The notes under the pieces were generated by a model. The model did no database searches, was not told the origin of the DNA, and worked only from the letters and a program-made list of their open reading frames with translations. Positions 15,563-63,163 of a DNA stretch of 64,000 bases are shown here, piece by piece; position 1 is the stretch's first letter; the number at the start of each line of letters is the position of its first letter. The position numbers were made by a program, and so were the translations under genes. This DNA comes from a virus (taxonomy: Duplodnaviria; Heunggongvirae; Uroviricota; Caudoviricetes), in the IMG/VR virus record IMGVR_UViG_3300042349_000541, positions 30,773 to 94,772 of that record; one strand, given 5' to 3'.

Positions 15563-18500
15563 TTACATGTAGTACCCGGAATTGTTTTCACCATTACTTT
15601 TAAACCATTCTGGTGCATCGTAATCATCACCAGTACCCAATTTTTCTCTTTCTATAGGCTGGGCAAATCCGCCGTACTGTTTATATGCGTCTAAGAAATT
15701 TTCTTTAGGTTTAGTGCGTGCAGACATATTTGCCATAACAAGTGCGGAATAACGGTCTTTTCTTAGTCTGCCCTTTTTACCTGTCCCGATGATGTATTCG
15801 GGAGTATCCCATCTTTCTCGTCCGGATGGTGTTTGCATTACATTGATCATGGACAGTTCGTTTTTTAGATTTTCTATATTAAATATGCAGTCTTCGAGGG
15901 TATCGTATATTCTCCCGTTGATATTGTCATATTCTATAGCCATTTCTATGCTAACGGGATCATAATATGGAAACAATAAAACTTTATCTTCAAAATCTTT
16001 TCTAAGCCCGTGATTTGCTTCTGCTGTCCAATCCGCTTTGGCAAAATTACAAAGCTTGAGAATATGCAGGCCCGCATAATCATCAGTGTCCTCGGGCTTT
16101 TCCGGGTCTATAACGGGCCATATGGCGAGTTCTCCTTCGGCTAGACGGCCTTTATCATGTAATGCTTCTGCAATCGTTCTACCGCCACCCTGAGAGTCCA
16201 TAGCGATTTCTTTACAAGGGAATATCCTGAGAAGATCTCTAATTTTTCTAGCACAATAAGAATAAAAATCTGTTTCGGTAGTAAGTTTTGAGTTTAACTT
16301 TTCTTTATGCTGTTGTCTGTTGGTTGTCCAAGAATAAACTATCCTTCTGTGGTCGGGACGAATTTCTAAAATTACTATACTGAAATTATCGACTTCCGAT
16401 GCAGGGTCGATGCCGTAAACATAATAACAGTCTTTATTGGCGTATAATGCCGGTTCGAACAGTACAGGCCCGCTAGGAAGGTTTACTTCGTTAGAATGAG
16501 ATACAACACAAGATTCTATAAGAGTTCGCTTAAAAAATCCTTGAGAATCAGAAGAAAAAATAGCACCATATTCCATGTCGAATATACCCGCATGAACTGT
16601 AGCTTTTGCTCTAGCTATCATACCTTCATCCATGAGACCGTCAGGTAATGAGCTTACAGGAATTCTTATGATTGAATAATGACTAGCCTTAAGAGCAGAG
16701 TGATTTTTATCTCCTAGCAATTCAGTCATTTTTTCGGGATCGCCCTTTGTGCTTATACGGGCATGATAATCTTTCCAGTATTTAGCAAAATGATTAAACT
16801 CGTAATATGCAGTACCGGCTAATACAATCTGGTTCCCAACACTTGAAGGATCAAATTCTTCCTCGGGTGGAGTCATTCCTAATTTTTGTCTTCTTTTATG
16901 CTTTACTTTTTCATTAGGAGAAGACGAAACGTTGGCAAAACCTGCTACAACTGTTTCGAAAATTTCGATAGGTATTGAATTATGCTGCCGAAAGCCTTCT
17001 GCGTAAAAACTGTTGGTAATCGGTAAATAATAATCATATAAATTTTGCTGGCTATTTAATTTCTGTACAGATACAATTTTTTGAAAATTATCTAAAGACT
17101 TTAAATATTCTACATAATTAAAAGCATCTTCATATTTTATAAACCTTTTTTGGATTTTTTCCCCAGTTAATAAATAGCAAATTTTCCATTTATTTCTATT
17201 TTTATCCCAAGTTATATATGACGGTTCTTCTGTTGTCACGCAATTATCTATTGCATTTTTAAATCTATCTACATTTAATAGTAAAGCAAAATTTTTAGCA
17301 ATATTATTATTCCACCTAACAAACCATTGACTGTTATCGCTAATATTTGAATTTCTTTTATTTATATAACCGTCAAATCCAAGCTTGTTTGATAAAAATT
17401 GAACATCCCTACATAATCTTTCCGAAACAGAATAATATGCTAAACCAATTTTATTTTCAATATCTCTATCCTGCCATAAAAAACAAGAACCGTCTCCGTC
17501 AAATAATCCAGAAAAAAAAGATATGATAGTTTTTTTTGTTGATTTTAAAATAGATTTTGGTACTATCTTAGTATGGGCAGTAACATAATCTAGGCCAAGT
17601 TTAAATAATTTATTTCTTAAGTCTTTATCATATAAATATAATCTATAAGATTTTTTACAACTCCATCCTCTTTTGTCAACATAAGCATCTTTAACGAAAA
17701 ATTTAAAATTGAATTTGCTTACAAGTTTAGAGCATAAGTTTACATCGGTGGTTGTAACCTGAATTAGTTTTTTATTAACTACAGATCCTTCGCTAACTAA
17801 TATTCCTAACAACCAAGCAAGATCTTCTGTTAAATCCTCTGGGTCAGTATTTGAAAAAATTGAATTTTTAGATTTTTCTACGAATAAAGTTTCGTCAAGT
17901 TCTTTTGGTTTTTTCCAGCCTTTATTCGTCATTACCTGATGATTTTCTGAACACCTGATGACATTTCCGTTTTCAAGTTTAATTTCATATACATCCGTTA
18001 ATGGTGTTTTAATAAACTTGGCTGGCAATTCTGTCGGGCATTTTTCATCCCCCGTAATAATTTCATGAGAATCAAAATCTTCAATTCTTATAAAACCGTC
18101 CGTTGTTTCAACTATGCTTCCGGCCTCTAAACATGCAAATTCGTCGGTAACAATATCATGTGCTCTAGCCCCTCTAATTTTATCACCAGTTCCTAGCGGT
18201 AAACAGGTAATAGTGCTATTATTTATTTTAAATATTAATCTGTCAGGATCTTTGTACGGGCCGCTTTCTTTAGTGCATAAACTTCTTAATATGGGTGCAT
18301 TATTCCATATTTCTTCCATGTAAGAAAAAAGAACTTTACTTTGCCTGAATGCAGAGCCTACGATAATAATTTTGCGTTTAGGAAGAAATAATGCTCTGAG
18401 TAATGCATAAACAGACATAGTCCAAGATTTAGAAGCTCCGCGAGAAGCTATAATCATTGGATATTTTTTAGTCCATAATTCTTTAAGTATTACCATTTGA

Positions 18501-18703
18501 AATGGTAAGATGTCTATGTTTAAAATAAATCTAGTTGCGAACCTAAAATAGTCCGGATTAGACATAATATAAAAAAGCCTCTTCATTGTTATTTCAGGAT
18601 CTGGATCTTGAAAAACATAATCGAGAGGATTATATATGTACTTATCTGGCCTTTCTAGTCCAAGCCATTCATTATCAAAATCATACCCTAGAATTTTTTT
18701 CAT
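15563..18703 (-). CDS. Terminase large subunit (intein-containing)
   Basis: Walker A-like ASRGASKS, Walker B IVTDEFA, nuclease motifs YGIDPA and KDRYSAL; interrupted by an intein. Confidence 0.9.
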   Translation of the reverse strand: MKKILGYDFDNEWLGLERPDKYIYNPLDYVFQDPDPEITMKRLFYIMSNPDYFRFATRFILNIDILPFQMVILKELWTKKYPMIIASRGASKSWTMSVYALLRALFLPKRKIIIVGSAFRQSKVLFSYMEEIWNNAPILRSLCTKESGPYKDPDRLIFKINNSTITCLPLGTGDKIRGARAHDIVTDEFACLEAGSIVETTDGFIRIEDFDSHEIITGDEKCPTELPAKFIKTPLTDVYEIKLENGNVIRCSENHQVMTNKGWKKPKELDETLFVEKSKNSIFSNTDPEDLTEDLAWLLGILVSEGSVVNKKLIQVTTTDVNLCSKLVSKFNFKFFVKDAYVDKRGWSCKKSYRLYLYDKDLRNKLFKLGLDYVTAHTKIVPKSILKSTKKTIISFFSGLFDGDGSCFLWQDRDIENKIGLAYYSVSERLCRDVQFLSNKLGFDGYINKRNSNISDNSQWFVRWNNNIAKNFALLLNVDRFKNAIDNCVTTEEPSYITWDKNRNKWKICYLLTGEKIQKRFIKYEDAFNYVEYLKSLDNFQKIVSVQKLNSQQNLYDYYLPITNSFYAEGFRQHNSIPIEIFETVVAGFANVSSSPNEKVKHKRRQKLGMTPPEEEFDPSSVGNQIVLAGTAYYEFNHFAKYWKDYHARISTKGDPEKMTELLGDKNHSALKASHYSIIRIPVSSLPDGLMDEGMIARAKATVHAGIFDMEYGAIFSSDSQGFFKRTLIESCVVSHSNEVNLPSGPVLFEPALYANKDCYYVYGIDPASEVDNFSIVILEIRPDHRRIVYSWTTNRQQHKEKLNSKLTTETDFYSYCARKIRDLLRIFPCKEIAMDSQGGGRTIAEALHDKGRLAEGELAIWPVIDPEKPEDTDDYAGLHILKLCNFAKADWTAEANHGLRKDFEDKVLLFPYYDPVSIEMAIEYDNINGRIYDTLEDCIFNIENLKNELSMINVMQTPSGRERWDTPEYIIGTGKKGRLRKDRYSALVMANMSARTKPKENFLDAYKQYGGFAQPIEREKLGTGDDYDAPEWFKSNGENNSGYYM
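16979..18133 (-). mobile_element. Intein with LAGLIDADG homing endonuclease (385 aa)
   Basis: Starts CLEAGS right after DEFA and ends QHN before Ser; contains WLLGILVSEG and FFSGLFDGDG motifs. Confidence 0.9.
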
Positions 18704-21111: not shown

Positions 21112-21903
21112 TTAAATAGTCTCCGAATTTAATAACGGTTTATCAACAATTCCGTTATTATAAACAATTTCCTGTGATAATCTATTATATTCTTCTTCCA
21201 TTGCAAGCCTGTATTTTTCTATTTCTATACCGGCTTCTTTTCTGAAATCCTTGTCTTCAATAAGGGCCGACACAAATTCGGTCCAAGTTTTTTTTGTATC
21301 TTCTATATTTTTAACACGCTGGTCCCGAGTACCTTTAATATCCTTTAATGCCGAAGCCTTACGGCTCATTAAATCCCGATACTCGTCCGACATGCTCTTG
21401 AGGGATATTTGAAGTGCCGAAATTTGTCTTTCGTTTAAGCTTATAAAATTAACATCCCATCCGGACTTGTCGCCCTGTTTTGCCATAGATATATCATATT
21501 CTAACTCCTCTATTTTTCTGCGGGAATCACCCTGAGATTTTAGAATTCTTTCGCATAAAACTTCGAGCTTGCATATATCTAATATCTGCATTTCTTCTGT
21601 GTGAAAAACATCGTCCTTAAACTGGGCATACATTTTTCTGTAATGATAATCCAGTAGTTTTAGTTCTTCGTCCGTAAACTGTTTCTGTAGGTGCCCGTAG
21701 AATGGCCTGCCCCTCAACTGATACTTTGCCTCAAGATCTACCTTCTGTACGGAAGTTACTCCAATGTTGTTGTGGACGTAATCCGCTATAACCGCAGTAC
21801 GTCTATTAAGTGCCGAGGCAATTTCTTCTATTGTCATTTTGTCCTTTTGGGACACTATGAAATTAATTTCTTCCGATGTAAGCTTACCTGTTTTTTTCGA
21901 CAT
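21112..21903 (-). CDS. Hypothetical HTH/coiled-coil protein, candidate terminase small subunit
   Basis: N-terminal HTH-like IEEIASALNRR and coiled coil; upstream of the large terminase. Confidence 0.35.
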   Translation of the reverse strand: MSKKTGKLTSEEINFIVSQKDKMTIEEIASALNRRTAVIADYVHNNIGVTSVQKVDLEAKYQLRGRPFYGHLQKQFTDEELKLLDYHYRKMYAQFKDDVFHTEEMQILDICKLEVLCERILKSQGDSRRKIEELEYDISMAKQGDKSGWDVNFISLNERQISALQISLKSMSDEYRDLMSRKASALKDIKGTRDQRVKNIEDTKKTWTEFVSALIEDKDFRKEAGIEIEKYRLAMEEEYNRLSQEIVYNNGIVDKPLLNSETI

Positions 21904-22351
21904 ATTCTTTGAGTATATTCATTATTTTTGTTTTGGCCGAGGCACTAATCTTTACGCCAGAACGTAGTTTTAAATAGGCTTTTCTATATTCTGCCGGTAT
22001 TATATCATCTAATTCATTCCAGTTAAACATGTTATTATATTCAACTTTTTTTATATCGAACGTGAGAGGTTCCGGTTGCACCAGATTTTTCTTGCACTCC
22101 TGAGCCTTTGTTATATCTTTATTGCCGTTAGGTCTAAAGTATTTGTCCCGTTTGAAAGTTTTTAAGCGGTTAGATATGTGTGTGGATACAAAATTCTCGA
22201 AGGGTCTTTTGCCATCCCATCTCTTATGTGCATCCATGCCCATAAGTATCGCCTCTTGTATTAAGTCCTCGGCGGTGTAATGGGCGAATTTGTACTTAGG
22301 AGCTATTGCTTTCGCAACTTTTATTATTAGGTCTATTTGTTCTTGTGACAT
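21884..22351 (-). CDS. Sigma70-family (region 2) RNA polymerase sigma factor
   Basis: EDLIQEAILMGMDAHKRWDGKRPFENFVSTHISNRL resembles sigma region 2. Confidence 0.7.
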   Translation of the reverse strand: MSQEQIDLIIKVAKAIAPKYKFAHYTAEDLIQEAILMGMDAHKRWDGKRPFENFVSTHISNRLKTFKRDKYFRPNGNKDITKAQECKKNLVQPEPLTFDIKKVEYNNMFNWNELDDIIPAEYRKAYLKLRSGVKISASAKTKIMNILKEYVEKNR

Positions 22352-22586: not shown

Positions 22587-22928
22587 GTGAATATAGGCTT
22601 GCAATCTGTCGATGTATATGGTAAGTTCTTTGTGTCGGCTTGGGGGTTCCAAGCGGCAAAGGCTCCTTTTCTAAGGAACTTGATGATGGCAAGTTTGGTC
22701 GTTGTTACAAAAGTTTGGATTGAAGCAGAGGATCTCGTGCTGGCTACTTTAGCATTAAATGGATGCGGTACGAAAATGCTGAAAGACACTCATCCTTACG
22801 ACATGTACTGCTTCGAGAAGAAAATCGGTTTTAATATCACCGAATTAAATCGGTTATATAAGAATTTTCCGCGAACCATCGTGGCATATCCAGACGGAGA
22901 TGATTTTATTAGGAATCCGTTGGTATAG
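22587..22928 (+). CDS. Hypothetical protein (uncertain)
   Basis: 113-aa ORF with GTG start and no clear promoter. Confidence 0.3.
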   Translation: MNIGLQSVDVYGKFFVSAWGFQAAKAPFLRNLMMASLVVVTKVWIEAEDLVLATLALNGCGTKMLKDTHPYDMYCFEKKIGFNITELNRLYKNFPRTIVAYPDGDDFIRNPLV

Positions 22929-23098
22929 CATTCAGTCAGCAAAAAGAAAAAAGTCGGTTCATCTGTAGGGGCGGGCCGACTTTGTCGGTCTCGGCGTGTA
23001 AGTCTAAAGTATCTATTGCATTGTGCCGATATATATAGTACGATGTTAGTAGTCCGGTAGTTCCGGAAGTTAGTTTCTCGTCAGAAAGGATTCTGATC

Positions 23099-23230
23099 AT
23101 GCGATTGGTTATGTTGCTAGTGTTAGTATCGATTACAGGATGCCATGCAGTAGAAAAGGTAGCTCTCAAGGCTATACCTAAGGATCATGGACGATACGAA
23201 TTCGCGTTAGAGTTTACGCCTAAGCGATAA
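23099..23230 (+). CDS. Small putative lipoprotein (43 aa)
   Basis: Below the track cut-off. MRLVMLLVLVSITGCHAVEK... with lipobox-like ITGC, RBS AGAAAGGA and an upstream promoter. Confidence 0.65.
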   Translation: MRLVMLLVLVSITGCHAVEKVALKAIPKDHGRYEFALEFTPKR

Positions 23231-23400
23231 TAGTTAACAATCGATAAAAGGTCGGTCTATCCGGGAGGGTGGGCCGACTTTGTCGGTCTCGTGACGAAAT
23301 GTTGTAGTTACTATTGCATTATGTCGATAATATGATAGACTGGTTTGTGTTGGGTTTGGGAGTTCCAAGCCAACAAAAGTTTTTCGAAAGGGTTTGAACT

Positions 23401-23730
23401 ATGTCGGCTACTTACAGTGAATTCGTAGGAATGGCATCGCTCGCGAACACGCTCGCAAAGATGGTTGCTACACTTGAGGCTGAACAGATTGTCGAAGCAT
23501 TCTTGATTTCACAGAATGTTGCAAACTGCATCGCCTACGATTTTGCAGACAACGGCGTTGAGCTTCATAACAAAATGAAGTGGGTCTTTTCTGAGCTATC
23601 GAATGCAACGGTTTTCGACCCGGCAATCTGGAATACAATCGTTGATAACGAGATGATTGATGCATGTTCCAAGGTGGTAGAAAAGCATCGGCAGAAGCAT
23701 GAGATGAACAGGCTTATGGAAATTCTGTAG
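23401..23730 (+). CDS. Hypothetical early protein (cassette 2)
   Basis: RBS GAAAGGG; followed by a terminator. Confidence 0.8.
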   Translation: MSATYSEFVGMASLANTLAKMVATLEAEQIVEAFLISQNVANCIAYDFADNGVELHNKMKWVFSELSNATVFDPAIWNTIVDNEMIDACSKVVEKHRQKHEMNRLMEIL

Positions 23731-23745
23731 TAACGAAAACGAATT

Positions 23746-23776
23746 CCGGCCCCGCTTTTGCGGGGTCGGTTTTTTT
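23746..23776 (+). terminator. Intrinsic terminator
   Basis: CCGGCCCCGC-TTTT-GCGGGGTCGG plus T-tract. Confidence 0.85.
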
Positions 23777-23847
23777 ACGCCTTGATATTGATAGCGTGAG
23801 AATAGGCCGACATTGTCGGTCTCGTCCTTGAGTCAAAGTGTAAAGAA

Positions 23848-23876
23848 TTGACAAACTATTTAAGGTGTGGTATAAT
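23848..23876 (+). promoter_or_regulatory. Consensus sigma70 promoter with no downstream ORF
   Basis: TTGACA-N17-TATAAT with an extended -10 TG. Confidence 0.85.
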
Positions 23877-24095
23877 AGACGGATCATAGGTAATGTAGGT
23901 ATAATCGTTAGAATAGGTATAATCGTTAAGATGAGTAAGATTATTAAGTTGGTTATGGTTGGCGGGTCGGTGAGAAGGGCCGACTTTGTCGGTCTCGTCA
24001 TGAATGTTGCTCTTTTTTGTTGACATATAGCTAAATAGTGCTATTATGTTTATATCGGTTCGAGTGTTTTACAGTGTTTTTTTTAAGGGTGTATT

Positions 24096-24341
24096 ATGAT
24101 GAATGCAATTGATAGACTTCGCGATGAGAACCGCAGGATTAGGTTTCTTAAGCCTAACAATGTTATAAGCATAAAAGGCAGAGAAGGACTGTTTTTTGTC
24201 GAGTGCGTTTTTGGAATGCCGGGTCTTAATGATTCTGTTAAGGTCAGAGAGGTTTACCCGGAAGATTATTCCGATCTGCCATCAACTGAGAGTTTTGAGG
24301 TGTCGATATTTGATATCGAAAAAATCGTGGACAGAAATTAA
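24096..24341 (+). CDS. Hypothetical early protein (cassette 4)
   Basis: Promoter at 24020, RBS AAGGG, terminator at 24361-24384. Confidence 0.8.
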   Translation: MMNAIDRLRDENRRIRFLKPNNVISIKGREGLFFVECVFGMPGLNDSVKVREVYPEDYSDLPSTESFEVSIFDIEKIVDRN

Positions 24342-24532
24342 CTCAAGAGCATTTGAGATTGCCCCGCTTCGGCGGGGTTTTTTTATAAGCTTTAAAATGT
24401 AATAGATTGGAAAGGGCCGACTTTGTCGGTCTCGTCCCAAAATGCTTGACATTTGATTTAAATATGCTCTAATGGTTTTATCGCTGATCAACGTGATCGG
24501 CAAACAAGGGTTTTAGTTTAAGGGTTACAGTT

Positions 24533-24961
24533 ATGAAAATGTCGCAAGTGTTGGCAATTCCTCATCAAATCATCGATTCGGTTACACCTGAATCTTTTGC
24601 AAAAGAAACCGGAGCTTGCCTAGTAATAGGCAAAAGACTGATCAGGGATTCCACCGTGGGATCGGGATTCGCAGAAACCGAAAAAATCATGCCGGTTCTG
24701 TCACTGATTCCAAAGCAGAAAAAACGGAAGCAAACCGAATCTTCGGTCAAATTTGATACGACAGCAGAACGGCGGATCATTGACGGCGATTCCGAAAGAG
24801 CAAAACGAATCGAACGATACCGAACGATGGCCGAACAGGGACCAATCGAAGATAAGTTCGAAGAAAATGAGCGTGAATTGATGAAGAAACAAATTACTTT
24901 CTGCGATCTGGCTCTCAAGGCCGGATGGATGCAGGAAGATGAATTCGAAGACGACGAATAA
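24533..24961 (+). CDS. Hypothetical early protein (cassette 5)
   Basis: Promoter at 24446; terminator CCCCCC-GAAA-GGGGGG-T7 at 24979-25001. Confidence 0.8.
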   Translation: MKMSQVLAIPHQIIDSVTPESFAKETGACLVIGKRLIRDSTVGSGFAETEKIMPVLSLIPKQKKRKQTESSVKFDTTAERRIIDGDSERAKRIERYRTMAEQGPIEDKFEENERELMKKQITFCDLALKAGWMQEDEFEDDE

Positions 24962-25154
24962 TCAGTAGGTTCGAATCGCCCCCCGAAAGGGGGGTTTTTT
25001 TATGGAAAGAAAAAATATCCCTCGGGAGAATGGGCCGACATTGTCGGTCTCGTCGCGATCTGAATACTTTTCTGTTGACTTTAAAAATTGATATGGTAAG
25101 ATGTATTTGTGGTCGGAAAGTTTCCGATACGAAAAACCTTTTTTGGAGTTAGTT

Positions 25155-25505
25155 ATGAGAGCTAGTGAATTGTTGGCCCGCGAACATGCTATTCTAGGTA
25201 GTGTCACCGTTGAATCATTCGCAATTGATTGCAAAATCGGCATTGTCACAGGAACGGTCAATATCGATGGTCAAGAATTTGAGAAAACCACAACGGCAAT
25301 CTCAATCATTCGTCCAAAGCGTAAAAAAGCGAAGCCGGTTGATACTTCCAAAGCAATCAAGGCCCGTAACATTGGAATTTATCAGTCGCAAGCTGATAAT
25401 GCTGAGGAACTACCGTTTGTCGGCGGGCAAATCGATGAAATGGCTCAGCTTGGAGCGTACATGACGTTCCTGAATGCGATGCTTGCGGGCGTTCATGGGA
25501 ACTAG
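25155..25505 (+). CDS. Hypothetical early protein (cassette 6)
   Basis: Start moved to ATG 25155 (RBS GGAG); terminator at 25523-25548. Confidence 0.8.
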   Translation: MRASELLAREHAILGSVTVESFAIDCKIGIVTGTVNIDGQEFEKTTTAISIIRPKRKKAKPVDTSKAIKARNIGIYQSQADNAEELPFVGGQIDEMAQLGAYMTFLNAMLAGVHGN

Positions 25506-25700
25506 ACCTTGGTTGATTGAGACCCCCCGAAAGGGGGGTTATTTTTTTGGAGTATATTTTTGCTTACGTGCGAATGGGCCGACTTTGTCGGTCTCGTTGG
25601 GAATGTTTGATCAATTGCTTGACATTGGATTTTTATATGGTAGAATGATTACGTTGTCGGCGAGTGACTGACAGCAAGAAACCTTTTTGGAGTTAGTGCT

Positions 25701-25955
25701 ATGAAGTATTACCGAGTACAGGTAAACGGCGGATCTTGGGTTAATTGTACAACGCTTTCAAGCGTAAAGCAGGTAATCAAAGGGGCGAATCAAATCGCCA
25801 TAGTTGAAAGAATCATCATCGACAAAGGAGATGAAAAAACTGGAATCGTCATCACAAAAACACTGACTCAGTTGAAAAAAGATTCTTGGTTTTCGGAGAC
25901 TCGTAAAGACGATGTCAAGTTCATGCAAAGGGTCATGAAAGCCCGCATCAAATAA
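25701..25955 (+). CDS. Hypothetical early protein (cassette 7)
   Basis: Promoter at 25619, RBS GGAG, terminator at 25981-26004. Confidence 0.8.
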   Translation: MKYYRVQVNGGSWVNCTTLSSVKQVIKGANQIAIVERIIIDKGDEKTGIVITKTLTQLKKDSWFSETRKDDVKFMQRVMKARIK

Positions 25956-26166
25956 TCCAAAAAGGTGCTCGAAAGAGCGTCCCCCCGAAAGGGGGGATTT
26001 TTTTGTGTCCATTCTGCGTAGAAATGCTGGAATAGGCCGACTTTGTCGGCCTCGCGTGTGTCAAGTAAAATCTTTATATTTTTTTTCTTTCTATAATCGC
26101 TTGACATGCGAAAATCTCAGTGTATAATGTATGCATCGCCCCAAGGAACTCTCAAGGAGAAAAGTC

Positions 26167-26424
26167 ATGGCAAATGATTTAAGCGATTTCGATACTCAAT
26201 TGCAAGTTGAGGATACTGAGGAATATCAAGATTTCTTGGATTCTCAGGAATCGGCACAGCAACACCAAATCGACGGCGACAATGCACTGACGACCATCAT
26301 TGAGGATATTCAGTATCTTCAACGTAGGATCAACAAGTTCCAAGAAGAATTCGGAACGTCGTCGGCTATGCAAGGTGCTGTAGCGGCTCTCACAACGATC
26401 AAAAGCAAAATCGCTGAGCGATAG
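26167..26424 (+). CDS. Acidic hypothetical early protein (cassette 8)
   Basis: Promoter at 26101, RBS AGGAG; D/E-rich. Confidence 0.8.
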   Translation: MANDLSDFDTQLQVEDTEEYQDFLDSQESAQQHQIDGDNALTTIIEDIQYLQRRINKFQEEFGTSSAMQGAVAALTTIKSKIAER

Positions 26425-26677
26425 AAAGGTTTAAAGGTTTAAATAGTGCTAAAAGCTAGACCACCGCCCTAACGGGTGTATTTTTAAAGTCTTTTAGAAT
26501 AAGATTGCAGACGAATCGGCTTACCCCCAAGGACATGTTGCGGGTGGGCCGACTTCGTCGGCCTCGATCATGTCAAGTGAAATGTTTATATTTTTATTTT
26601 TAGTGCAAATGCTTGACATAGCGATTTAATCATGTATAATATATGCATGACAAGTTGATAACTTTCGGGAGTGAATC

Positions 26678-27016
26678 GTGGACAAGTTTACTGAGTCTTA
26701 TATCGGAACTGCTTTGTGGTCATCTACCGATTCTTCGGATCATCCATTGGATTGCAATTATGACACCGACGACATTTCGCCGGAATGCATGAAGCAAATG
26801 ATTGAAGATTGCAAGGCATTTCAGGAGACTGCTGGCGATATGATCGTCGGGAATGAAGAACGTGCAGGACACGACTTCTGGCTCACACGTAACGGTCACG
26901 GTGCCGGATTTTGGGATGGTGATTGGATTCAGCACGGAGACAAGCTCACGGGGATTTCCAAAGCATACGGATCAGTAGATTTGTATGTTGGCGACGACGG
27001 TAAGATTTATTGCTAG
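26678..27016 (+). CDS. Conserved phage early protein (GHDFWLTRNGHGAGFWDGD motif)
   Basis: Acidic 112 aa; I recall this motif from uncharacterised phage early proteins; promoter at 26613. Confidence 0.75.
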   Translation: MDKFTESYIGTALWSSTDSSDHPLDCNYDTDDISPECMKQMIEDCKAFQETAGDMIVGNEERAGHDFWLTRNGHGAGFWDGDWIQHGDKLTGISKAYGSVDLYVGDDGKIYC

Positions 27017-27172
27017 CTATGGCAGACGAGGTCGGCTGGGCCGACTTCGTCGGCCTCGTCAATGTCAACTGAAATAATAAAATATATTTTGTTGGCATGA
27101 ATGCTTGACATAGCCGAAAGCCAGTGTATAATTGATGCATAACGCCAAACAACTCTTTTGAAAGGTAGAATT

Positions 27173-27514
27173 ATGAGCAATCCAAAGTATCATTCAATGA
27201 ATTTTTGCAATGTTCCTATTTTCGTACAAAATAGGCAAACGTACAAAAATACATTTGTTCGTGCGACCATCGGCGACGATAAACAGGAAGTTTTCGAAGA
27301 AAATGAATGCTCGGAAATGCATCTGTACAAAGTGCTGCTGCCCGACGATACGACGAAGTTCGTTCTTGCGTGCGATGGATCAAGTGCAATCGGCCAAGCA
27401 ACTTGCGGATACAAATTCGAAGTCCTTATCCTTGAAAAGGCAGAGTTTGAAAAACGATGCTTTGCCTTGCGGGTGCCTTTGAGAATTCAGGGCTGGGGCA
27501 GCGAGGAAGTGTAG
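27173..27514 (+). CDS. Hypothetical early protein (cassette 10)
   Basis: Promoter at 27105, RBS GAAAGG. Confidence 0.75.
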   Translation: MSNPKYHSMNFCNVPIFVQNRQTYKNTFVRATIGDDKQEVFEENECSEMHLYKVLLPDDTTKFVLACDGSSAIGQATCGYKFEVLILEKAEFEKRCFALRVPLRIQGWGSEEV

Positions 27515-27705
27515 CGATCAGATGTCAAGCCCACCCCTAACTAATGGGGTGGGCCGACTTCGTCGGCCTCGATTGAGTCAAGTGAAATAATAATCTTTTT
27601 TTTATATGTATCAATCGCTTGACATGGCCGAACCTTGTGGTAAAATTAACGCATAAGCAACGACGGGTTGCAAGTAAGTTGGTTCTTTTTTGAGAGGGTT
27701 GATTA

Positions 27706-27984
27706 ATGAATACTTCTTCTGTTGGATTGCGAAAAGCCGAAACGATGGTTAAGGAATACTCGCCTGAGGAAATCAAGGAAGCGTACAAGATTCACGAACA
27801 GGCACAGCGAGAAGCAAGGGTGGTTGAAATTCGGCGTAAGCTGGAGCACCACCAATCCAGAATTGACGATCAGGTGCAGACCATTCGGGGTATTCGAGCA
27901 CGAGAACGTGTGGCTTTGGCGACACTCGCACAACTGAATGAAAAGTTGGAAGCGTTCAAGAAGGGCGATACGGAAGCGATCTAG
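27706..27984 (+). CDS. Coiled-coil hypothetical early protein (cassette 11)
   Basis: Promoter at 27619, RBS GAGAGG. Confidence 0.75.
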   Translation: MNTSSVGLRKAETMVKEYSPEEIKEAYKIHEQAQREARVVEIRRKLEHHQSRIDDQVQTIRGIRARERVALATLAQLNEKLEAFKKGDTEAI

Positions 27985-28314
27985 CCCGAAGCACAATACT
28001 ATATGCTAGACCCAGTCCCGTGAAAGCCGGGACGGGTCGCTGCAAAGCGGCTCCGGTGCTCATAATATAGTAATATTATAATAAAGGTTGAATTTCGGTA
28101 AAGCTTGACGTTTTACTTGCCAACTGCCTTGTGCGGAAAAAATTCACCGATTATGTTGGTCCACCCTTGACAAAGGGGTGGGCCGACTTCGTCGGCCTCG
28201 AAACTGTCAAGTGTAATAAAAATATTTTTTTTGTTTGTGCATTTACTTGACATGGCAAAACCCTATGGTAAAATATTAGCATGTAAGTTAGTCAATTACT
28301 TCATGGAGTTTGAA

Positions 28315-28770
28315 ATGGTTACTTTTGCATCGCTTCAAAAAAAATCCACGCTTTGCAGGTCCGGTTGTTATACGGTTTTTATGAAAATCGGTAAAGTTGG
28401 AGTAAAGCTGTTCCAACGGGAAGACGACCGTGATGTAGCATTCAGTGAACAATGCAAGGCTCACAACTGCGGTTTGGGACCGAGAGCCATCAAGAAATTT
28501 CATTTTTTCGATGCAGACACCAATGAATTTTGGTATGCTTACACAACAGAAGTCGTGAAAACTTTCAAAAGAGGCCGCATTCGTGGAAGGGCGGAACGTA
28601 GGATAAACACCATGATTGATGAGCTTCAAGAGAAGCTGCTAAAAGAAAACCTAGATATTGAAGATCTGCATTATTACAATGTGGGCGTTTCTAAGGGAAA
28701 ACTGGTACGAATAGATTTCGGACCAACAAGCAGCGGGCAGCTTCCCATGTGTATGCAACGTTGGGATTAA
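28315..28770 (+). CDS. Minimal protein-kinase-like (ePK/RIO/APH fold) enzyme
   Basis: Gly loop RSGCYTVF, VGVKLF (Lys), EDLHYYNV (catalytic loop) and RIDFG. Confidence 0.75.
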   Translation: MVTFASLQKKSTLCRSGCYTVFMKIGKVGVKLFQREDDRDVAFSEQCKAHNCGLGPRAIKKFHFFDADTNEFWYAYTTEVVKTFKRGRIRGRAERRINTMIDELQEKLLKENLDIEDLHYYNVGVSKGKLVRIDFGPTSSGQLPMCMQRWD

Positions 28771-28986
28771 ACAGTCGGTGAAGTTGGCCAGCGATTGGGT
28801 GGGCCGACTTCGTCGGCTTCGCCGGAATGTCAAGAACAAAATCCGAATAATCCCGAAAAAAGTAAAATCTAAAAATATCCCTTGATTGCTTGACATAGGG
28901 AAACGATATGGTAAAATAATTGCATAAGAGCGAATGACAGTCAAACGCTCAAAGTTGAAACGGTTTTTGATTCAAAGGTGCAAATT

Positions 28987-30189
28987 ATGCCAATTACTAA
29001 TCTTTCGAAGTTGGATGCTGCGGGTATGGGCAACAAAGGTGAATTCGTGAAAACACTGGAGGGGCAGGTCGGCGTAGGATTCGCGGCAGGATTCCATGTT
29101 CACAAGGACTGGATGTCCAAGACAATTGACTACGATACGGCGTTGGAAGAAATCAGCAAAGCCGAGCAGGAACGGCACGATTATATCCTCGATGCGGACC
29201 AAGTCAAGTTCGTTGTCACCGAAACCGACAAATTCGCGGTCGAAATTGACGGGAAGCAATATTCCCCCACGGAACACAGTTTCCCGCAAATGTCACAGAA
29301 AATCCTTGTTATGTCGTCGTCGATCCTTCGCGAGATGGCTGCATCTGAACCGGATAGGCAAGATGCCGAAACAATGGTTTCGCTTGCTCGAAATTCGCTG
29401 CGGCATGTCAAGACGGGAACCAAGTTTTTCGTCCGGACATACACGGATGGAACTTTGCGGGCTTGGTTCTCGGATAAGTATGCCCCGGTCGATAACCGAT
29501 GGTATTTGGAAACCCTCAGGGAATTACTACCAAGTGCCCGATTGTCTCACTGGAAATCCACCGAAGATACACTTTGGGGCAACTTGCTACTTCCGGACAG
29601 CATGAAAAACGTGCCAGACGATCAAGATTCCGATTTTGGCTGTATGCTCAGCGTGGCCAATTGCGAAATCGGCAAACGTCGGCTCAACTTGCTCCCCTCG
29701 ATTTTTCGGTCGATTTGTCTCAATGGTAATATTTGGGATCAAAAACACGGCGTAGCAATCCGTCGCAAGCATATGGGCAACATTGACCTTGCAACGCTCA
29801 AGACCGAAATTGGCGAGTCGATCAAGGCACAATTGCCTATCGCGACGGAAGCAATCGATAAATTCCTTGCAACCCGAAAGCTTGAAATTTCAACGAATGC
29901 CCGCGACGTTCTGGCGGTTATTGCGATGGACGAAAAACTCACAGTGGCGGAAGCATATCGGGCCTATAAAGCTCACGACTTGTTCGAGTCCGAAAGCAAC
30001 AATTTGTTCGGAATTGTCAATGCAATCACTCGCATGGGGCAATCGTTCAACGCTGAAACCAACTATTCGATGGATGTACTCGGCGGAAAACTTTCTCAAA
30101 TGACATCCGGCGGTTGGGATAGGATTGTTTCCAAGTCCCGCAGTATCAACGCTGATGATATCATGAGCGTTTATGGGGTGGCCGTCTAG
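28987..30189 (+). CDS. DUF932-family protein
   Basis: FFVRT...RAWFSDKYAPVDN and NCEIGKRRLNLLPSIFRSICLNG match the DUF932 pattern as I recall it. Confidence 0.7.
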   Translation: MPITNLSKLDAAGMGNKGEFVKTLEGQVGVGFAAGFHVHKDWMSKTIDYDTALEEISKAEQERHDYILDADQVKFVVTETDKFAVEIDGKQYSPTEHSFPQMSQKILVMSSSILREMAASEPDRQDAETMVSLARNSLRHVKTGTKFFVRTYTDGTLRAWFSDKYAPVDNRWYLETLRELLPSARLSHWKSTEDTLWGNLLLPDSMKNVPDDQDSDFGCMLSVANCEIGKRRLNLLPSIFRSICLNGNIWDQKHGVAIRRKHMGNIDLATLKTEIGESIKAQLPIATEAIDKFLATRKLEISTNARDVLAVIAMDEKLTVAEAYRAYKAHDLFESESNNLFGIVNAITRMGQSFNAETNYSMDVLGGKLSQMTSGGWDRIVSKSRSINADDIMSVYGVAV

Positions 30190-30503
30190 TGATTATTGTA
30201 ATAATCGCAGTTATACTACTCGTCATTGAATATTGCAGTGGCGAGTAGTTCGGAAAAAGTAAAAATTTTTATCGGCCTGCCCTTGACATAGGGTGGGCCG
30301 ACTTCGTCGGCCTCGCCGGAGTCAAGTGGAATCTTTCTTTTTTTTATTTCCACGCATTCGCTTGACATTGGCCGTTCATATGTTAAAATAATTGCATGAG
30401 CGAAGACGAGAGTAATTAACTAAGAATCGCTTTGGGTGGCCCACAGTGAGAACGTGAACTGTCTAAAAGTGACGTAATCTAAATTGGCAAGCAAATTGGA
30501 TTG

Positions 30504-30578
30504 GCATTTAATAGTGTGTCGGATATTGCACGGCTGGTGTTTGCCAGTTAGGGTTGGTTCAAATCCAACGTAAATGCT
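30504..30578 (+). ncRNA. tRNA-like RNA with a non-canonical 6-nt anticodon loop
   Basis: Acceptor GCATTTA/TAAATGC, T arm GTTGG-TTCAAAT-CCAAC, anticodon arm GCTGG-TGTTTG-CCAGT. Confidence 0.65.
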
Positions 30579-30580
30579 TC

Positions 30581-30654
30581 GGGACTGTAGCTCAATTGGT
30601 TAGAGCAGGAAACTCATAATTTCTCGGTTCTCGGTTCAAGTCCGGGCAGTCCCA
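30581..30654 (+). tRNA. tRNA with CAT anticodon (Ile2 or elongator Met)
   Basis: Full cloverleaf, loop CTCATAA, G1-C72, A73. Confidence 0.92.
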
Positions 30655-30677
30655 CTTTTATTAATAAGGATAAAACT

Positions 30678-31847
30678 ATGGCTAGCTGGAAAAACATTCG
30701 CGGCAAACTGCATTGCGAGCTAACAATTGAGTTTTTGTCATCGGGTTATTATATGCCCGCAAAAACCTATGGTCCGCCTGAAAATTGCTATCCCGAAGAA
30801 GGTGACGAAGAACGTATTTTTGATTGTGCCACCATTAATGGTAAAGCAATTCCTCAAGAAATCGGGCAAAAACTTTTCGATCTGTTGACAAATGAAATCG
30901 ATGATGTAGAATTAGAGCATGAAGACTCAAGAGAATTCGAAGGAGAACAATATGTCGATTAAACTTAGTCTTAAGCAGTTGCTATCAATTGTTTTCGATG
31001 ACGAAGGAAACAATCTGTATCCTGAATGCTATCTAATGAATGGTAGTCAAGTTCTTGAAACCGTAAAGTTATTCTCTGTTAACTTTGATGTATGTTATGG
31101 TTTCAAAATACCGGAAGAAGAAACTAGACAGCATTGGATGGTCTTTGACATTCATGCCGAAAACAATAAACTATTCGCAACTTCTTACCAAAGGATGTAG
31201 GTAACTATCATGGATCGAAAAACTATGCTTCAAATGCACGGCATTATTGGACTGCTTGGTTCTGGAGTTGATTTTACTTCAGGTAGTTGTGGAGAGCCAC
31301 CAATTAGTGTTAGACCATGTATTAACTGCGGAAAAGAAAAACAGCACAACAATGCATTTTGCTCTAGCGAATGTAGTAAGGAACATAAAAAAAAGAAAGT
31401 TTAAATCATGTCGTTAAAATTACCACAAATAGGTGAAGAAGCTGGAGTTACATATATTCTTTGCGAAAAAAGCTTCTATTCTCCGGACTATACAATTTGG
31501 AGATACAGAAGATGCAATGTTGAAACAGGTACAATTGAAATTGCGTACGTTGCAATACTTGGCGGAAATTCCAATGCTAATTTCATTAAACTTCTGACTT
31601 GTTGGAACCGCACGACAAGATGGGTTTACGGTCCTGTATAATGAAAATTTCAAAAATTAAAATCGACTATGACAACTGGTATATGTACCAATCGCTATAC
31701 CAAATTACAGAATACAAAAACGGTGCAGTCTACAAAACAAAAATGTTAGGATATGTCAAAAAAGGATATGCTACACTCGAAAATCAACAACTAAGTCCTC
31801 TTTCGACATCTCTGTTGGGTAAAGAAATTTCAATTCTTTCAGAATAA
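30678..31847 (+). other. Run of 5 small hypothetical ORFs
   Basis: 30678-30962, 30952-31200, 31210-31404, 31408-31641, 31641-31847; tightly coupled with RBSs. Confidence 0.7.
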
Positions 31848-31999
31848 TCCACTTGACAAATGCGGGCGGGCCGACAAAGTCGGCCTCGCAACGTACATCC
31901 TATTCTCGCTTTCTAGTTCTAATCGGTGGCTGTCAATTCAGCTTTCCGTTAGGAATGTTTATCCATTGGGATAATCACCGATTAAACTATTCTTTAGCG

Positions 32000-32206: not shown

Positions 32207-32296
32207 GATAAATCCTTTGGGCTTCGCCCTGTAGAAGAAAAAAAATAACAGTTGTTCGTTACGCCTTTATTATACTACTGTTTGCGGGCTTGTCAA

Positions 32297-32740
32297 TCAA
32301 ATTCCTCGCATGTTCAAAAAATTCTCGAAAGCCATAACTTCCAGTAGTCTTAAAGCTTGATTATGCTTTATGGTTTTTCTTTGGTTGCTTAGTTGCTCCC
32401 GTTTAGTTTTAGATTTAGCGTGATATTCCTTTACGGATTCTCGCCATTCCTTATTTACTGTTTCTGTCATTGCTAGATATGCTAGCGGGCAGGAATAGTA
32501 GTAGGGGTGCATTGATTCATCGAGGGGCTTGTTATACCAGTAGCCTTGTCGGTATTCTAGTATATCGCAAGTTATAAACTTGTCGCAGTGAAACTTATCT
32601 TCGAATTCCCATACTTGCCATAGTACGCCTTTAAAAGCGTTTCCTCTATAGCAGTAGCGAATACATTTAGTTCTAGCGTTTCCCGTCGTAAGCCTGCGGA
32701 TTTTTTCTTTGCGACTAACTTCATCGCCGTACCATCCCAT
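32297..32740 (-). CDS. Conserved hypothetical phage/plasmid protein (KPLDESMHPYYYSCP motif)
   Basis: MGW start, RBS AGGAG, minus-strand promoter at 32796-32769. Confidence 0.75.
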   Translation of the reverse strand: MGWYGDEVSRKEKIRRLTTGNARTKCIRYCYRGNAFKGVLWQVWEFEDKFHCDKFITCDILEYRQGYWYNKPLDESMHPYYYSCPLAYLAMTETVNKEWRESVKEYHAKSKTKREQLSNQRKTIKHNQALRLLEVMAFENFLNMRGI

Positions 32741-32904
32741 AGCATTCTCCTTTTGTTAGGTTTCTTTTATTATAACAGGCCCGAATGAATTGTCAAGTGT
32801 TATTTAAAAATAATTTTTTTTCTTCCATATGCTTGACATGGCGTGAGACTGTGGTAAAATGATTGCGTCGAGACAAACGATATCTTACTCTAACGGAGAC
32901 GATT

Positions 32905-61588: not shown

Positions 61589-63163
61589 ATGACTTTTAAG
61601 TATCTGAATCAAAAAACTTCTGTTCAAAATCCTATCGTCGGTCGCAAGGAAATGGTTCAAACCAACGGCGGCGGTTACGCTTTCAAGATTGACGATCTTC
61701 AAATTCTTGACAGATTTTTGAGTCTTGGAGCTACTTCCGGTACTTATTATATGTCGAAAGAAAAAGTACAGTATACCAATACTGAAAATATTGTTTCGTG
61801 CGTTCAGTCTGCTCCTAATGAAACATTAAATAGAATCGTTGAAGTTTCCAGTAAGGGTCTTGCACATAAGAACGATCATGCTATTTATGCACTTGCGTTA
61901 GTTTTTGTTCATGGAGATAACTCTGTAAAAACTAGGGCCGTTGTAGAATTTAACAAGATTGTACGAACTGCTACTCACTTGTTTATGTTTTGTGCATTTA
62001 TTAAAGAGATGCGTGGTTTTGGTAAGCTTGTACGTCAAGCGATTAACAATTGGTATGTATCAAAAGATACTAAGTCTTTTGCATATCAGGTTTCTAAGTA
62101 TCAACAACGTGAAGGTTGGTCTCACAAAGACGTATTTTGCCTGACTCACCCAAAGTTTGGTAAGACCACTAATATGAATAAGATTGCTAAGTGGGCTATG
62201 GGTAATTTGGATACTTCCAACCTAAAGCCTTCCGATGAAGGACTTGTTCTGTGTAAAGCAGTTGATGATGCAAAACACATCAAAAATGCTAAAGAATTAG
62301 TAGATCATATCTCGAATTATAAACTACAGAGAGAACATATTCCTACTGAATTTTTGAATAAGCCCGAGATTCAAGAAGCTTTGCTTCCGCATATGAACGC
62401 TACGGCACTTATCAGAAGTCTTTCGGTAATGACTGCTAGCGGGCTTATCTCGCCACTGTCTAAATCAACAAAGTATATTGTCGGCAGGCTAAATGATAAG
62501 GATTGGCTTAGAGGTCAAAGAATTCATCCACTTTCTATTCTAGTCGCAAATAGAATCTATGGGCAAGGCAGAGGAATGAAAGGTTCACTTACTTGGAATA
62601 CAGATAGAAATATTTTGGACGCACTAGAAAATGCTTTCTATAATGCTTTTGACGCTATCCAGCCTACTAATAAGAATTATATGTACGGAATTGATGTTTC
62701 GGGTTCGATGAGTTCCCATTTTAACGATACGCCATTGCGGTTCTGCGAGGTTGCAGCCGTTCTAGCGATGGCTCATGTGCGCACAGAGCCTTGGACATTC
62801 GTTGGCGGTTTTGCGAGCGGTTTTGTAGATTTAGGAATATCCTCCAAGGATACATTGAAGTCTGCTACTGAAAAATGCCTTAAGAATAATTTCGGATCGA
62901 CTAATCCTTCCGCAGTTCTTTCTTATGCCAAGCAAAATAAAATGGATGTTGATTGTTTCATAATTATCACAGATAACGAAGTTAATTCTGGTAATCACGT
63001 TTCGTCCGAACTTAAATCCAACTTCCCTAAGTCCAAGATGATTGTTTGCGGGCTTGCGGTAAATAACTTTAGCATTGCAGATCCTAAAAATCCTAACATG
63101 CTAGATATCGCTGGATTTTCCCCGGAAATCACTTCCGCTATTTCTTCGTTCGCACGCTCTTGA
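61589..63163 (+). CDS. rsr: Ro60/TROVE-domain RNA-binding protein (Rsr orthologue) with VWA domain
   Basis: NGGGYAF, LDRFLSLG, RTATHLF, KYQQREGWSHKD, TALIRSL, RIHP and MIDAS IDVSGSM. Confidence 0.93.
   Translation: MTFKYLNQKTSVQNPIVGRKEMVQTNGGGYAFKIDDLQILDRFLSLGATSGTYYMSKEKVQYTNTENIVSCVQSAPNETLNRIVEVSSKGLAHKNDHAIYALALVFVHGDNSVKTRAVVEFNKIVRTATHLFMFCAFIKEMRGFGKLVRQAINNWYVSKDTKSFAYQVSKYQQREGWSHKDVFCLTHPKFGKTTNMNKIAKWAMGNLDTSNLKPSDEGLVLCKAVDDAKHIKNAKELVDHISNYKLQREHIPTEFLNKPEIQEALLPHMNATALIRSLSVMTASGLISPLSKSTKYIVGRLNDKDWLRGQRIHPLSILVANRIYGQGRGMKGSLTWNTDRNILDALENAFYNAFDAIQPTNKNYMYGIDVSGSMSSHFNDTPLRFCEVAAVLAMAHVRTEPWTFVGGFASGFVDLGISSKDTLKSATEKCLKNNFGSTNPSAVLSYAKQNKMDVDCFIIITDNEVNSGNHVSSELKSNFPKSKMIVCGLAVNNFSIADPKNPNMLDIAGFSPEITSAISSFARS

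Follow-up and report, generated by a model that had tools for sequence, protein, structure and literature searches.

The window analysed here, a 64,000-nucleotide stretch of one strand read 5′ to 3′, comprises bases 30773-94772 of the 168,799-bp IMG/VR record IMGVR_UViG_3300042349_000541 (Caudoviricetes) and holds an array of small genes separated by copies of one short hairpin-forming repeat. The minus-strand half of the window carries structural and packaging genes, including an intein-bearing large terminase and a tape measure protein of 2720 aa, and the gene for a sigma70-region-2 protein (21884-22351, minus strand) adjoins the array in divergent orientation. About 50 further near-consensus promoters of the form TTGACA-16/17-TATAAT, without hairpin, are found on the plus strand from the array to the genome end. 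This promoter half covers 54-167 kb of the genome (the window from 23.8 kb onward), the structural half, which lies behind the sigma-like gene, having almost none of these promoters, and host RNA polymerase probably transcribes the whole plus-strand half. The hairpin is limited to the first 9 kb of the promoter half. In our reading, which we hold to be probable, the array is a shuffling array of stem-loops and early promoters separating single-gene cassettes, resembling the promoter-early stem-loop (PeSL) cassettes of T4-like phages and residing in a phage that is not T4-like.

The pattern GGCCGAC-N3-GTCGGYY was matched 15 times in the window, always on the plus strand and between 22974 and 31885, where shuffled sequences gave an expectation of 0.01. 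Successive copies are 173-1573 bp apart, and all 15 are flanked by G or A 5′ of the stem and by TCG 3′ of it. The loop is TTT or ATT in copies 1-8, TTC in copies 9-14 and AAA in copy 15, while the arm reads GTCGGTC in copies 1-7 (type A) and GTCGGCC or GTCGGCT in copies 8-15 (type B). The initial annotation had described a 15-copy palindrome array with such spacing and loop blocks, and the pattern search recovers it. A search of the rest of the record with the same pattern gave no further match, and a covariance model built from 77 motif copies retrieved from the whole genome just the 15 copies of the array, the runner-up scoring 15 bits. The count in the remaining genome, which the annotation had left to be made, thus places the motif in the array only. 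The copies are the following:

22973..22993, plus strand, hairpin copy 1 (pattern from 22974): type A, arm GTCGGTC, loop TTT
23271..23291, plus strand, hairpin copy 2 (pattern from 23272): type A, loop TTT
23804..23824, plus strand, hairpin copy 3 (pattern from 23805): type A, loop ATT
23977..23997, plus strand, hairpin copy 4 (pattern from 23978): type A, loop TTT; left junction of cassette 4, a cassette that the related contig G3 lacks
24414..24434, plus strand, hairpin copy 5 (pattern from 24415): type A, loop TTT; right junction of cassette 4
25032..25052, plus strand, hairpin copy 6 (pattern from 25033): type A, loop ATT
25576..25596, plus strand, hairpin copy 7 (pattern from 25577): type A, loop TTT
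26034..26054, plus strand, hairpin copy 8 (pattern from 26035): perfect palindrome, loop TTT; earliest copy with the long type B promoter module
26546..26566, plus strand, hairpin copy 9 (pattern from 26547): type B, loop TTC
27038..27058, plus strand, hairpin copy 10 (pattern from 27039): type B, loop TTC; a degenerate half-copy lies just upstream (27021-27037)
27551..27571, plus strand, hairpin copy 11 (pattern from 27552): type B, loop TTC; left junction of cassette 11, absent from G3
28180..28200, plus strand, hairpin copy 12 (pattern from 28181): type B, loop TTC; right junction of cassette 11
28801..28821, plus strand, hairpin copy 13 (pattern from 28802): arm GTCGGCT, outer pair G.U
30295..30315, plus strand, hairpin copy 14 (pattern from 30296): type B, loop TTC
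31868..31888, plus strand, hairpin copy 15 (pattern from 31869): loop AAA; closes the array before convergent minus-strand genes

Each hairpin is part of a larger junction module, which is the sole sequence common to otherwise unrelated cassettes. A junction opens with the stop codon of the preceding gene, which in six junctions is followed by a terminator, and the hairpin comes after 22-75 nt. TCG and a box of weak conservation stand next, the box reading GAATGTT in type A and GTCAAGTGAAAT in type B; type B modules then have about 25 nt rich in A/T, and the promoter comes last. A sigma70-like promoter lies 23-80 nt downstream of 14 of the 15 copies and is followed by a small gene, mostly an ORFan; ten of these 14 promoters match the consensus at 11-12 of 12 positions. 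The promoter core consists of gcTTGACAt, a 16-nt spacer and TATAAT or TAAAAT, and GCAT occurs close to where transcription is expected to start. Canonical poly-C/poly-G terminators with a T run precede copies 3, 5, 6, 7 and 8, and copy 9 weakly, while nine junctions have no terminator besides the hairpin. Near-consensus sigma70 promoters at most copies, often with a strong terminator, had been claimed from the outset, and the claim needs a single correction: copy 15, which lies between convergent transcription units, has no promoter downstream. The signals are located as follows:

22599..22627, plus strand, promoter of the leading cassette c0: TTGCAA-17-TAAGTT, chimeric, combining two promoters which stand apart in the related contigs G3, G1 and G4
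23016-23044, 23314-23341, 23848-23876, 24020-24047, 24446-24473, 25075-25102 and 25619-25646, plus strand, type A promoters: the -35 starts 34 nt past the loop centre (cassette 5: 23 nt)
26101-26128, 26613-26640, 27105-27132, 27619-27646, 28247-28274, 28890-28917 and 30362-30389, plus strand, type B promoters: hairpin, GTCAAGTGAAAT box, A/T tract, gcTTGACAt, 16 nt, TATAAT/TAAAAT
23746-23769, 24361-24378, 24978-24995, 25521-25540 and 25979-25998, with a weak one at 26465-26478, plus strand, terminators of GC stem and T run: each upstream of the next hairpin

The distance from the loop centre to the -35 element is 34 nt in type A and 58 nt in type B in the phage of the window (hereafter W) and in the related contigs G1 and G3, with exceptions of 23, 80 and 96 nt. 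In the more distant contig L278 this distance, counted from the sequences, varies between 36 and 65 nt, so that the two spacing classes of W are a mark of recent common ancestry among the modules and not of a positional requirement. A role of the hairpin as the site of a fixed-position activator, or in RNA polymerase collision, was rejected on the same grounds, as distances of 23, 34, 58, 80 and 96 nt are out of helical phase and vary in L278.

Several further details of the junctions were observed. In three type B junctions (27529-27553, 28161-28184 and 30275-30299) an upstream hairpin of the form GGCCYRCCC...GGGTGGGCC, often with TTGACA in its loop, draws on the initial bases of the motif, with which it competes for folding. 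The GTCAAGT box found 3′ of the motif is the -35 hexamer inverted. Past the array, at 32269-32860, two perfect divergent promoters stand back to back on one common A/T tract, the -35 hexamer of each being the GTCAAG box of the other, and the type B module may descend from a pair of this form.

The cassettes that the junctions delimit are listed here:

22587-22928, plus strand, c0: single-gene cassette
23099-23230, plus strand, c1: 43 aa, lipoprotein-like
23401-23730, plus strand, c2: single-gene cassette
from the promoter at 23848 to hairpin 4 (23977), plus strand, c3: no open reading frame (ORF)
24096-24341, plus strand, c4: single-gene cassette
24533-24961, plus strand, c5: single-gene cassette
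25155-25505, plus strand, c6: paralog of c5
25701-25955, plus strand, c7: single-gene cassette
26167-26424, plus strand, c8: single-gene cassette
26678-27016, plus strand, c9: relatives are viral hypothetical proteins only
27173-27514, plus strand, c10: single-gene cassette
27706-27984, plus strand, c11: single-gene cassette
28315-28770, plus strand, c12: 151 aa, kinase-like
28987-30189, plus strand, c13: DUF932-like, weak match
30390..31847, plus strand, cassette 14: leader, tRNA-Met (30581-30655) and five small genes, at the ordinary GC content of the genome (31-40%)

The initial annotation had also noted that several cassette genes look more GC-rich than the accessory genes downstream, and the values agree with GC-richer cassettes, with 44% GC in the array against 36.4% in the genome.

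In regard to the turnover of these cassettes, the most direct information comes from related phages, of which four contigs were obtained through a scan of IMG/VR with the exact motif and four more through homologues of the neighbouring sigma-like protein. The motif is present in 18 copies in G3, 19 in G1 (L023; G2 has the same arrangement), 3 in G4, 4 in L274, 11 in L280, 8-9 in L278 and 2 in L281, and all arrays lie upstream of the same late-gene block. The arrangement of G1 was found again in four independent assemblies, so the arrays are not assembly artefacts. No such array was found in the few kb available of L033, L276, L277, L279 and L283, whose sigma-like proteins are 44-51% identical. 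The motif scan of metagenome contigs gave, among the matches listed, single chance matches in high-GC DNA only; single matches in viral contigs were high-GC chance matches too, and a scan for the type B promoter box without hairpin was unspecific, with single chance matches only.

W and G3 are 93-99% identical across most shared cassettes, yet two cassettes are present only in W and four only in G3. In all six of these insertions or deletions the homology partner switches inside the hairpin block, the left flank matching one repeat and the right flank the next. In a seventh case W has lost a leading cassette through a crossover between two promoter spacers, and in an eighth a G4-specific cassette joins 15-25 nt past the hairpin. 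All eight junctions examined are therefore within the module, and for six of the eight the place is the hairpin block. Four genomes together hold about 25 distinct cassettes, some nine of them common to W, G3 and G1. Order changes as well: the kinase-like cassette precedes the DUF932 cassette in W but follows it in G1, c5 has the c4 family on its other side in G1, and the c1 and c2 families are reversed in L280. Between W and G3 the identity of the c2 ORF drops to 55-85% whereas its promoter and terminator are 100% identical, which points to replacement of alleles anchored in the regulatory flanks or to fast diversification. Three related contigs end exactly at a hairpin copy (L026 at position 4-20, L274 and L281), which fits branching of the assembly graph caused by cassette polymorphism within samples. 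The analogy with PeSL cassettes and the shuffling platform put forward in the initial annotation are in keeping with these comparisons, since cassette content and order differ among relatives instead of being identical, junctions fall at the motif, and the motif is confined to the array.

The alignment of the 77 motif copies over the 8-bp stem and 3-nt loop was used to ask which property of the repeat is maintained. Pairing is intact in 77 of 77 copies and in 560 of 560 alignment cells. Two stem pairs are changed on both sides in a compensatory manner, and in four only one side is changed, the resulting pair, read on the sense strand, being in every case G.U or A-U. The covariation score was reached by none of 500 shuffles, controls in which the alignment was slid drop to 22-50% paired, and a search allowing up to three mismatches without requiring pairing returned no unpaired true copy. 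Six lineages have an invariant stem save for C-to-T changes, while L278, with a sigma-like protein 58% identical, carries four arm combinations in one array (GGCCGAC/GTCGGCC, GGCCCAC/GTGGGCC, GGGCGAC/GTCGCTC and GGCCGAC/GTTGGCC). In RNA the hairpin folds with -14 to -15 kcal/mol (31-nt segments). For a type A copy the template-strand hairpin reaches -4.3 kcal/mol, compared with -8.1 kcal/mol on the sense strand, as the wobbles become A.C mismatches. Since the wobble changes pair on the sense strand only, the stem variants argue that the selected feature is an intrastrand hairpin of the sense strand, in the transcript or, less likely, in sense-strand single-stranded DNA.

This has a bearing on a reading in which the palindrome is a duplex-DNA operator, bound by a dimeric phage or host regulator that would co-regulate the immediate-early promoters, for example to shut them off. 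Such a site would account for a 17-bp palindrome in which the central triplet varies and the arms are invariant in six lineages, for its location upstream of the promoter at 14 of the 15 copies, for the two discrete -35 distance classes of 34 and 58 nt in W, G1 and G3, and for its restriction to one temporal block of promoters. However, the L278 array has three different arm sequences with both arms changed together in every copy, and joint change of the arms while copies differ from each other is not predicted for a dimer reading half-sites. Only the sense strand tolerates the asymmetries, all of them as G.T pairs, the distance to the -35 ranges over 36-65 nt in L278 and takes values of 23, 80 and 96 nt elsewhere, and no helix-turn-helix or ribbon-helix-helix family, nor any other Pfam DNA-binding domain, was detected in the 102 scanned proteins (98 ORFs of the early region and 4 neighbours). 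We regard the operator as quite improbable, and the array of protein-binding DNA sites suggested in the initial annotation is likewise disfavoured by the stem covariation.

The strand on which the hairpin is maintained also speaks to promoters of the phage N4 type, in which template-strand DNA hairpins are read by a virion-carried RNA polymerase. Early promoters of N4 have a 7-bp stem and a 3-nt loop, a geometry that the stem and loop size of our motif matches, and the template strand of type B copies forms a C-GAA-G triloop. The wobble pattern, though, assigns the selected hairpin to the sense strand and the template hairpin of type A is weakened. Among the large proteins, comparison with PHROG gave no match of RNA polymerase type: that of 2720 aa is the tape measure, and those of 2086 and 1087 aa are without PHROG match. 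Sigma70 promoters follow the hairpin at 14 of the 15 copies, and copy 15 has no downstream gene at all. An origin in N4-type promoters would thus be very surprising.

As for the process moving the cassettes, the whole genome gave no match to Phage_integrase (PF00589), with control genomes positive, and it encodes neither a Resolvase (serine recombinase) nor a Y1 transposase (Y1_Tnp, PF01797) family. An integron, IS200-like or resolvase mechanism was rejected, these enzymes being absent from the genome. Between modules, no exact identity is longer than that of the hairpin block. With no recombinase encoded, the longest identity at the hairpin and two of the eight junctions outside it, general homologous recombination is the most economical explanation, and from the junction sequences we are fairly confident that homologous recombination between modules, by phage or host functions, drives the turnover. 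Gene capture by a dedicated mechanism, as first suggested, is not what these observations favour; they fit ordinary homologous recombination.

The same junctions could be read in another way, with the hairpin as a signal for structure-specific recombination or mobility that works on single-stranded or extruded DNA, like attC sites or the ends of IS200/IS605 elements. The array would then be a phage integron without an integrase, in which sense-strand DNA hairpins stall or recruit the replication and recombination machinery, and cassettes are excised as circles and captured at other hairpins. The cassettes would be semi-autonomous mobile units, and selection at the level of the cassette, and not of gene expression, would keep the motif invariant across lineages with sigma-like proteins down to 58% identical. 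Conservation of pairing beyond sequence alone, six of eight junctions in the hairpin block, equal conservation of the motif behind strong terminators, a cassette composition distinct from the genome, and related contigs breaking exactly at the hairpin all agree with such a signal. The terminal hairpin has the loop AAA in W and G3 and TTT in G1 (L023:16202-16218), while arms and flanks are identical; the loop appears to have been inverted, and such a flip would fit arm-to-arm exchange. Loop inversion at hairpins occurs in other genomes. Yet no tyrosine or serine recombinase or Y1 transposase is encoded, two of the eight junctions are outside the hairpin, and homologous recombination predicts the same junctions, the hairpin block being the longest exact identity. 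Furthermore, a scan of 185,579 species genomes for the motif yielded 60 single chance matches and no host repeat family, so the motif is absent there save for chance. We consider the mobility signal, and the integron-like array with it, unlikely. On the same scan, an origin of the motif from a host repeat of the repetitive extragenic palindromic (REP) kind was rejected.

According to the PeSL-like reading that we favour, the motif copies would be the stem-loop parts of composite junction modules at the head of the half that bears host-type promoters. Among the related phages, crossovers inside the module have deleted, inserted, duplicated, replaced and reordered whole cassettes, and these would have arisen through general homologous recombination and not a site-specific enzyme. 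On the RNA of the upstream cassette the hairpin would attenuate read-through or form a 3′-end barrier against 3′-exonucleases, and in this manner insulate the next cassette. The outcome would be a hyperplastic early region in which accessory genes are carried together with their own expression signals. For the role of the hairpin in expression, whether attenuator or 3′-end barrier, our confidence is moderate and draws on analogy. At the end of the ORF-less cassette 3 and of the last operon the hairpin stands alone, and these two cases, together with the nine junctions without another terminator, argue in favour of an RNA role.

Several observations weigh against this reading. The hairpin has no U tract and the terminator scan does not call it. 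In six junctions a strong terminator already stands 5′ of the hairpin, which is conserved equally perfectly there; as the terminator precedes it, the hairpin would in those junctions be transcribed by read-through only. The covariation comes mainly from one divergent contig, L278. Lastly, the sequence of the stem is conserved far beyond what pairing needs, pointing to a protein that recognises it or to recombination that homogenises it.

PeSL cassettes are known from the T4-like myoviruses RB49/phi1, PST and nt-1, where the stem-loop is reported to attenuate read-through or to serve as a 3′-end barrier (PMC2839356, PMC4122927). They share with the array described here a composite junction of stem-loop, AT-rich tract and sigma70-type early promoter, a location beside ORFan genes in a hyperplastic early region, and close relatives in which cassettes have been inserted, deleted or replaced through crossovers in the module, some of them within the stem-loop. 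However, the replicative polymerase of the phage described here is of the DnaE type and at most 29% identical to that of any cultured phage, so the phage falls outside the T4-like group and lacks close relatives among cultured phages; the tape measure of 2720 aa likewise sets it apart, and a search for near-identical DNA in cultured phages gave no match. Here one invariant hairpin with an 8-bp stem and a 3-nt loop lacks a U tract and is separate from the co-occurring poly-C/poly-G terminators, and 15-19 units form one contiguous array, while PeSL regions are scattered. Terminator activity and mini-circles are further features of the PeSL class.

Integron arrays are similar in having tandem single-gene cassettes, hairpin-forming repeats with conserved pairing and presence or absence of whole cassettes, but the phage has no IntI integrase, every cassette has its own promoter, some junctions are outside the hairpin, and the repeat measures 19-21 nt and is fully paired, compared with the imperfect attC sites of 57-141 bp. 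REP sequences and bacterial interspersed mosaic elements (BIMEs) also present a short, highly conserved intergenic palindrome 3′ of genes with conserved pairing, possibly protecting mRNA 3′ ends and serving as recombination points; in contrast, our motif has 15 copies in one phage region and no accompanying Y1 transposase of the REP-associated (RAYT) type. The promoters of N4 are alike in stem and loop size only, as here the sense strand is selected, no virion RNA polymerase was found and promoters of sigma70 type follow the hairpins. With the RNase III sites of the T7 early region the array has in common that a conserved RNA structure lies between early genes and could both define and protect mRNA 3′ ends, but our hairpin is much shorter than an RNase III substrate and each gene has its own promoter.

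In regard to the cassette genes, nearly all are without a Pfam or named PHROG family, and a Pfam family was assigned in only seven of the 102 scanned proteins. The c12 product resembles minimal kinases of the APH/OspG/YrbL type in its language-model features, and homologous cassettes occupy other array positions in G1 and L278. It is plausible that the early ORFans of the cassettes may act in host takeover or anti-defence. The c1 product starts with a signal-peptide-like sequence and carries ITGC, which resembles a lipobox; it is possibly a small early lipoprotein and, as such, a candidate for superinfection exclusion. Cassette 3 (173 bp) has a perfect promoter (12 of 12 positions) with extended TG, no credible ORF, and two copies of a 14-nt direct repeat, AGGTATAATCGTTA. 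Its counterparts are of the same size in G3 and G1, and L280 has a 171-bp hairpin interval; the cassette is a candidate for a small RNA ending at hairpin 4. A twister-sister ribozyme match was found at 27998-28073 (plus strand) with 46.4 bits, the Rfam gathering score being 34; it lies towards the 3′ end of cassette 11, past the ORF and ahead of the next hairpin, and is kept in the orthologous G1 cassette (L023:11001-11076) with 40.9 bits.

Outside the array, the large terminase (15563-18703, minus strand; 1046 aa) contains an intein with a LAGLIDADG domain; in relatives it is intein-free in L272 and L274 (659-661 aa) and intein-bearing in L277 (1074 aa). The early-region gene at 61589-63163 encodes a Ro60/TROVE plus vWA protein. 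The record has a 127-bp terminal repeat that looks to us like an assembler overlap; if it is one, the record ends would not mark the physical ends of the genome, and the placement on first-injected DNA put forward in the initial annotation would be without support.

To our knowledge, modular shuffling mediated by PeSL has been described only in T4-like myoviruses. The same logic is found here in an unrelated lineage of uncultured phages with a 169-kb genome, in the very clean form of a contiguous array with insertions and deletions that are bounded exactly by the hairpin and separate near-identical genomes, and about 25 interchangeable early genes are defined, including those for a minimal kinase-like protein, a DUF932 protein and a small lipoprotein, as well as a ribozyme-bearing cassette. 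The main interest of the array is as a convergent example whose hairpin is supported by covariation. It suggests that the combination of a portable gene, its own expression signals and a common recombination handle is a route by which phages convergently arrive at the turnover of early accessory genes.

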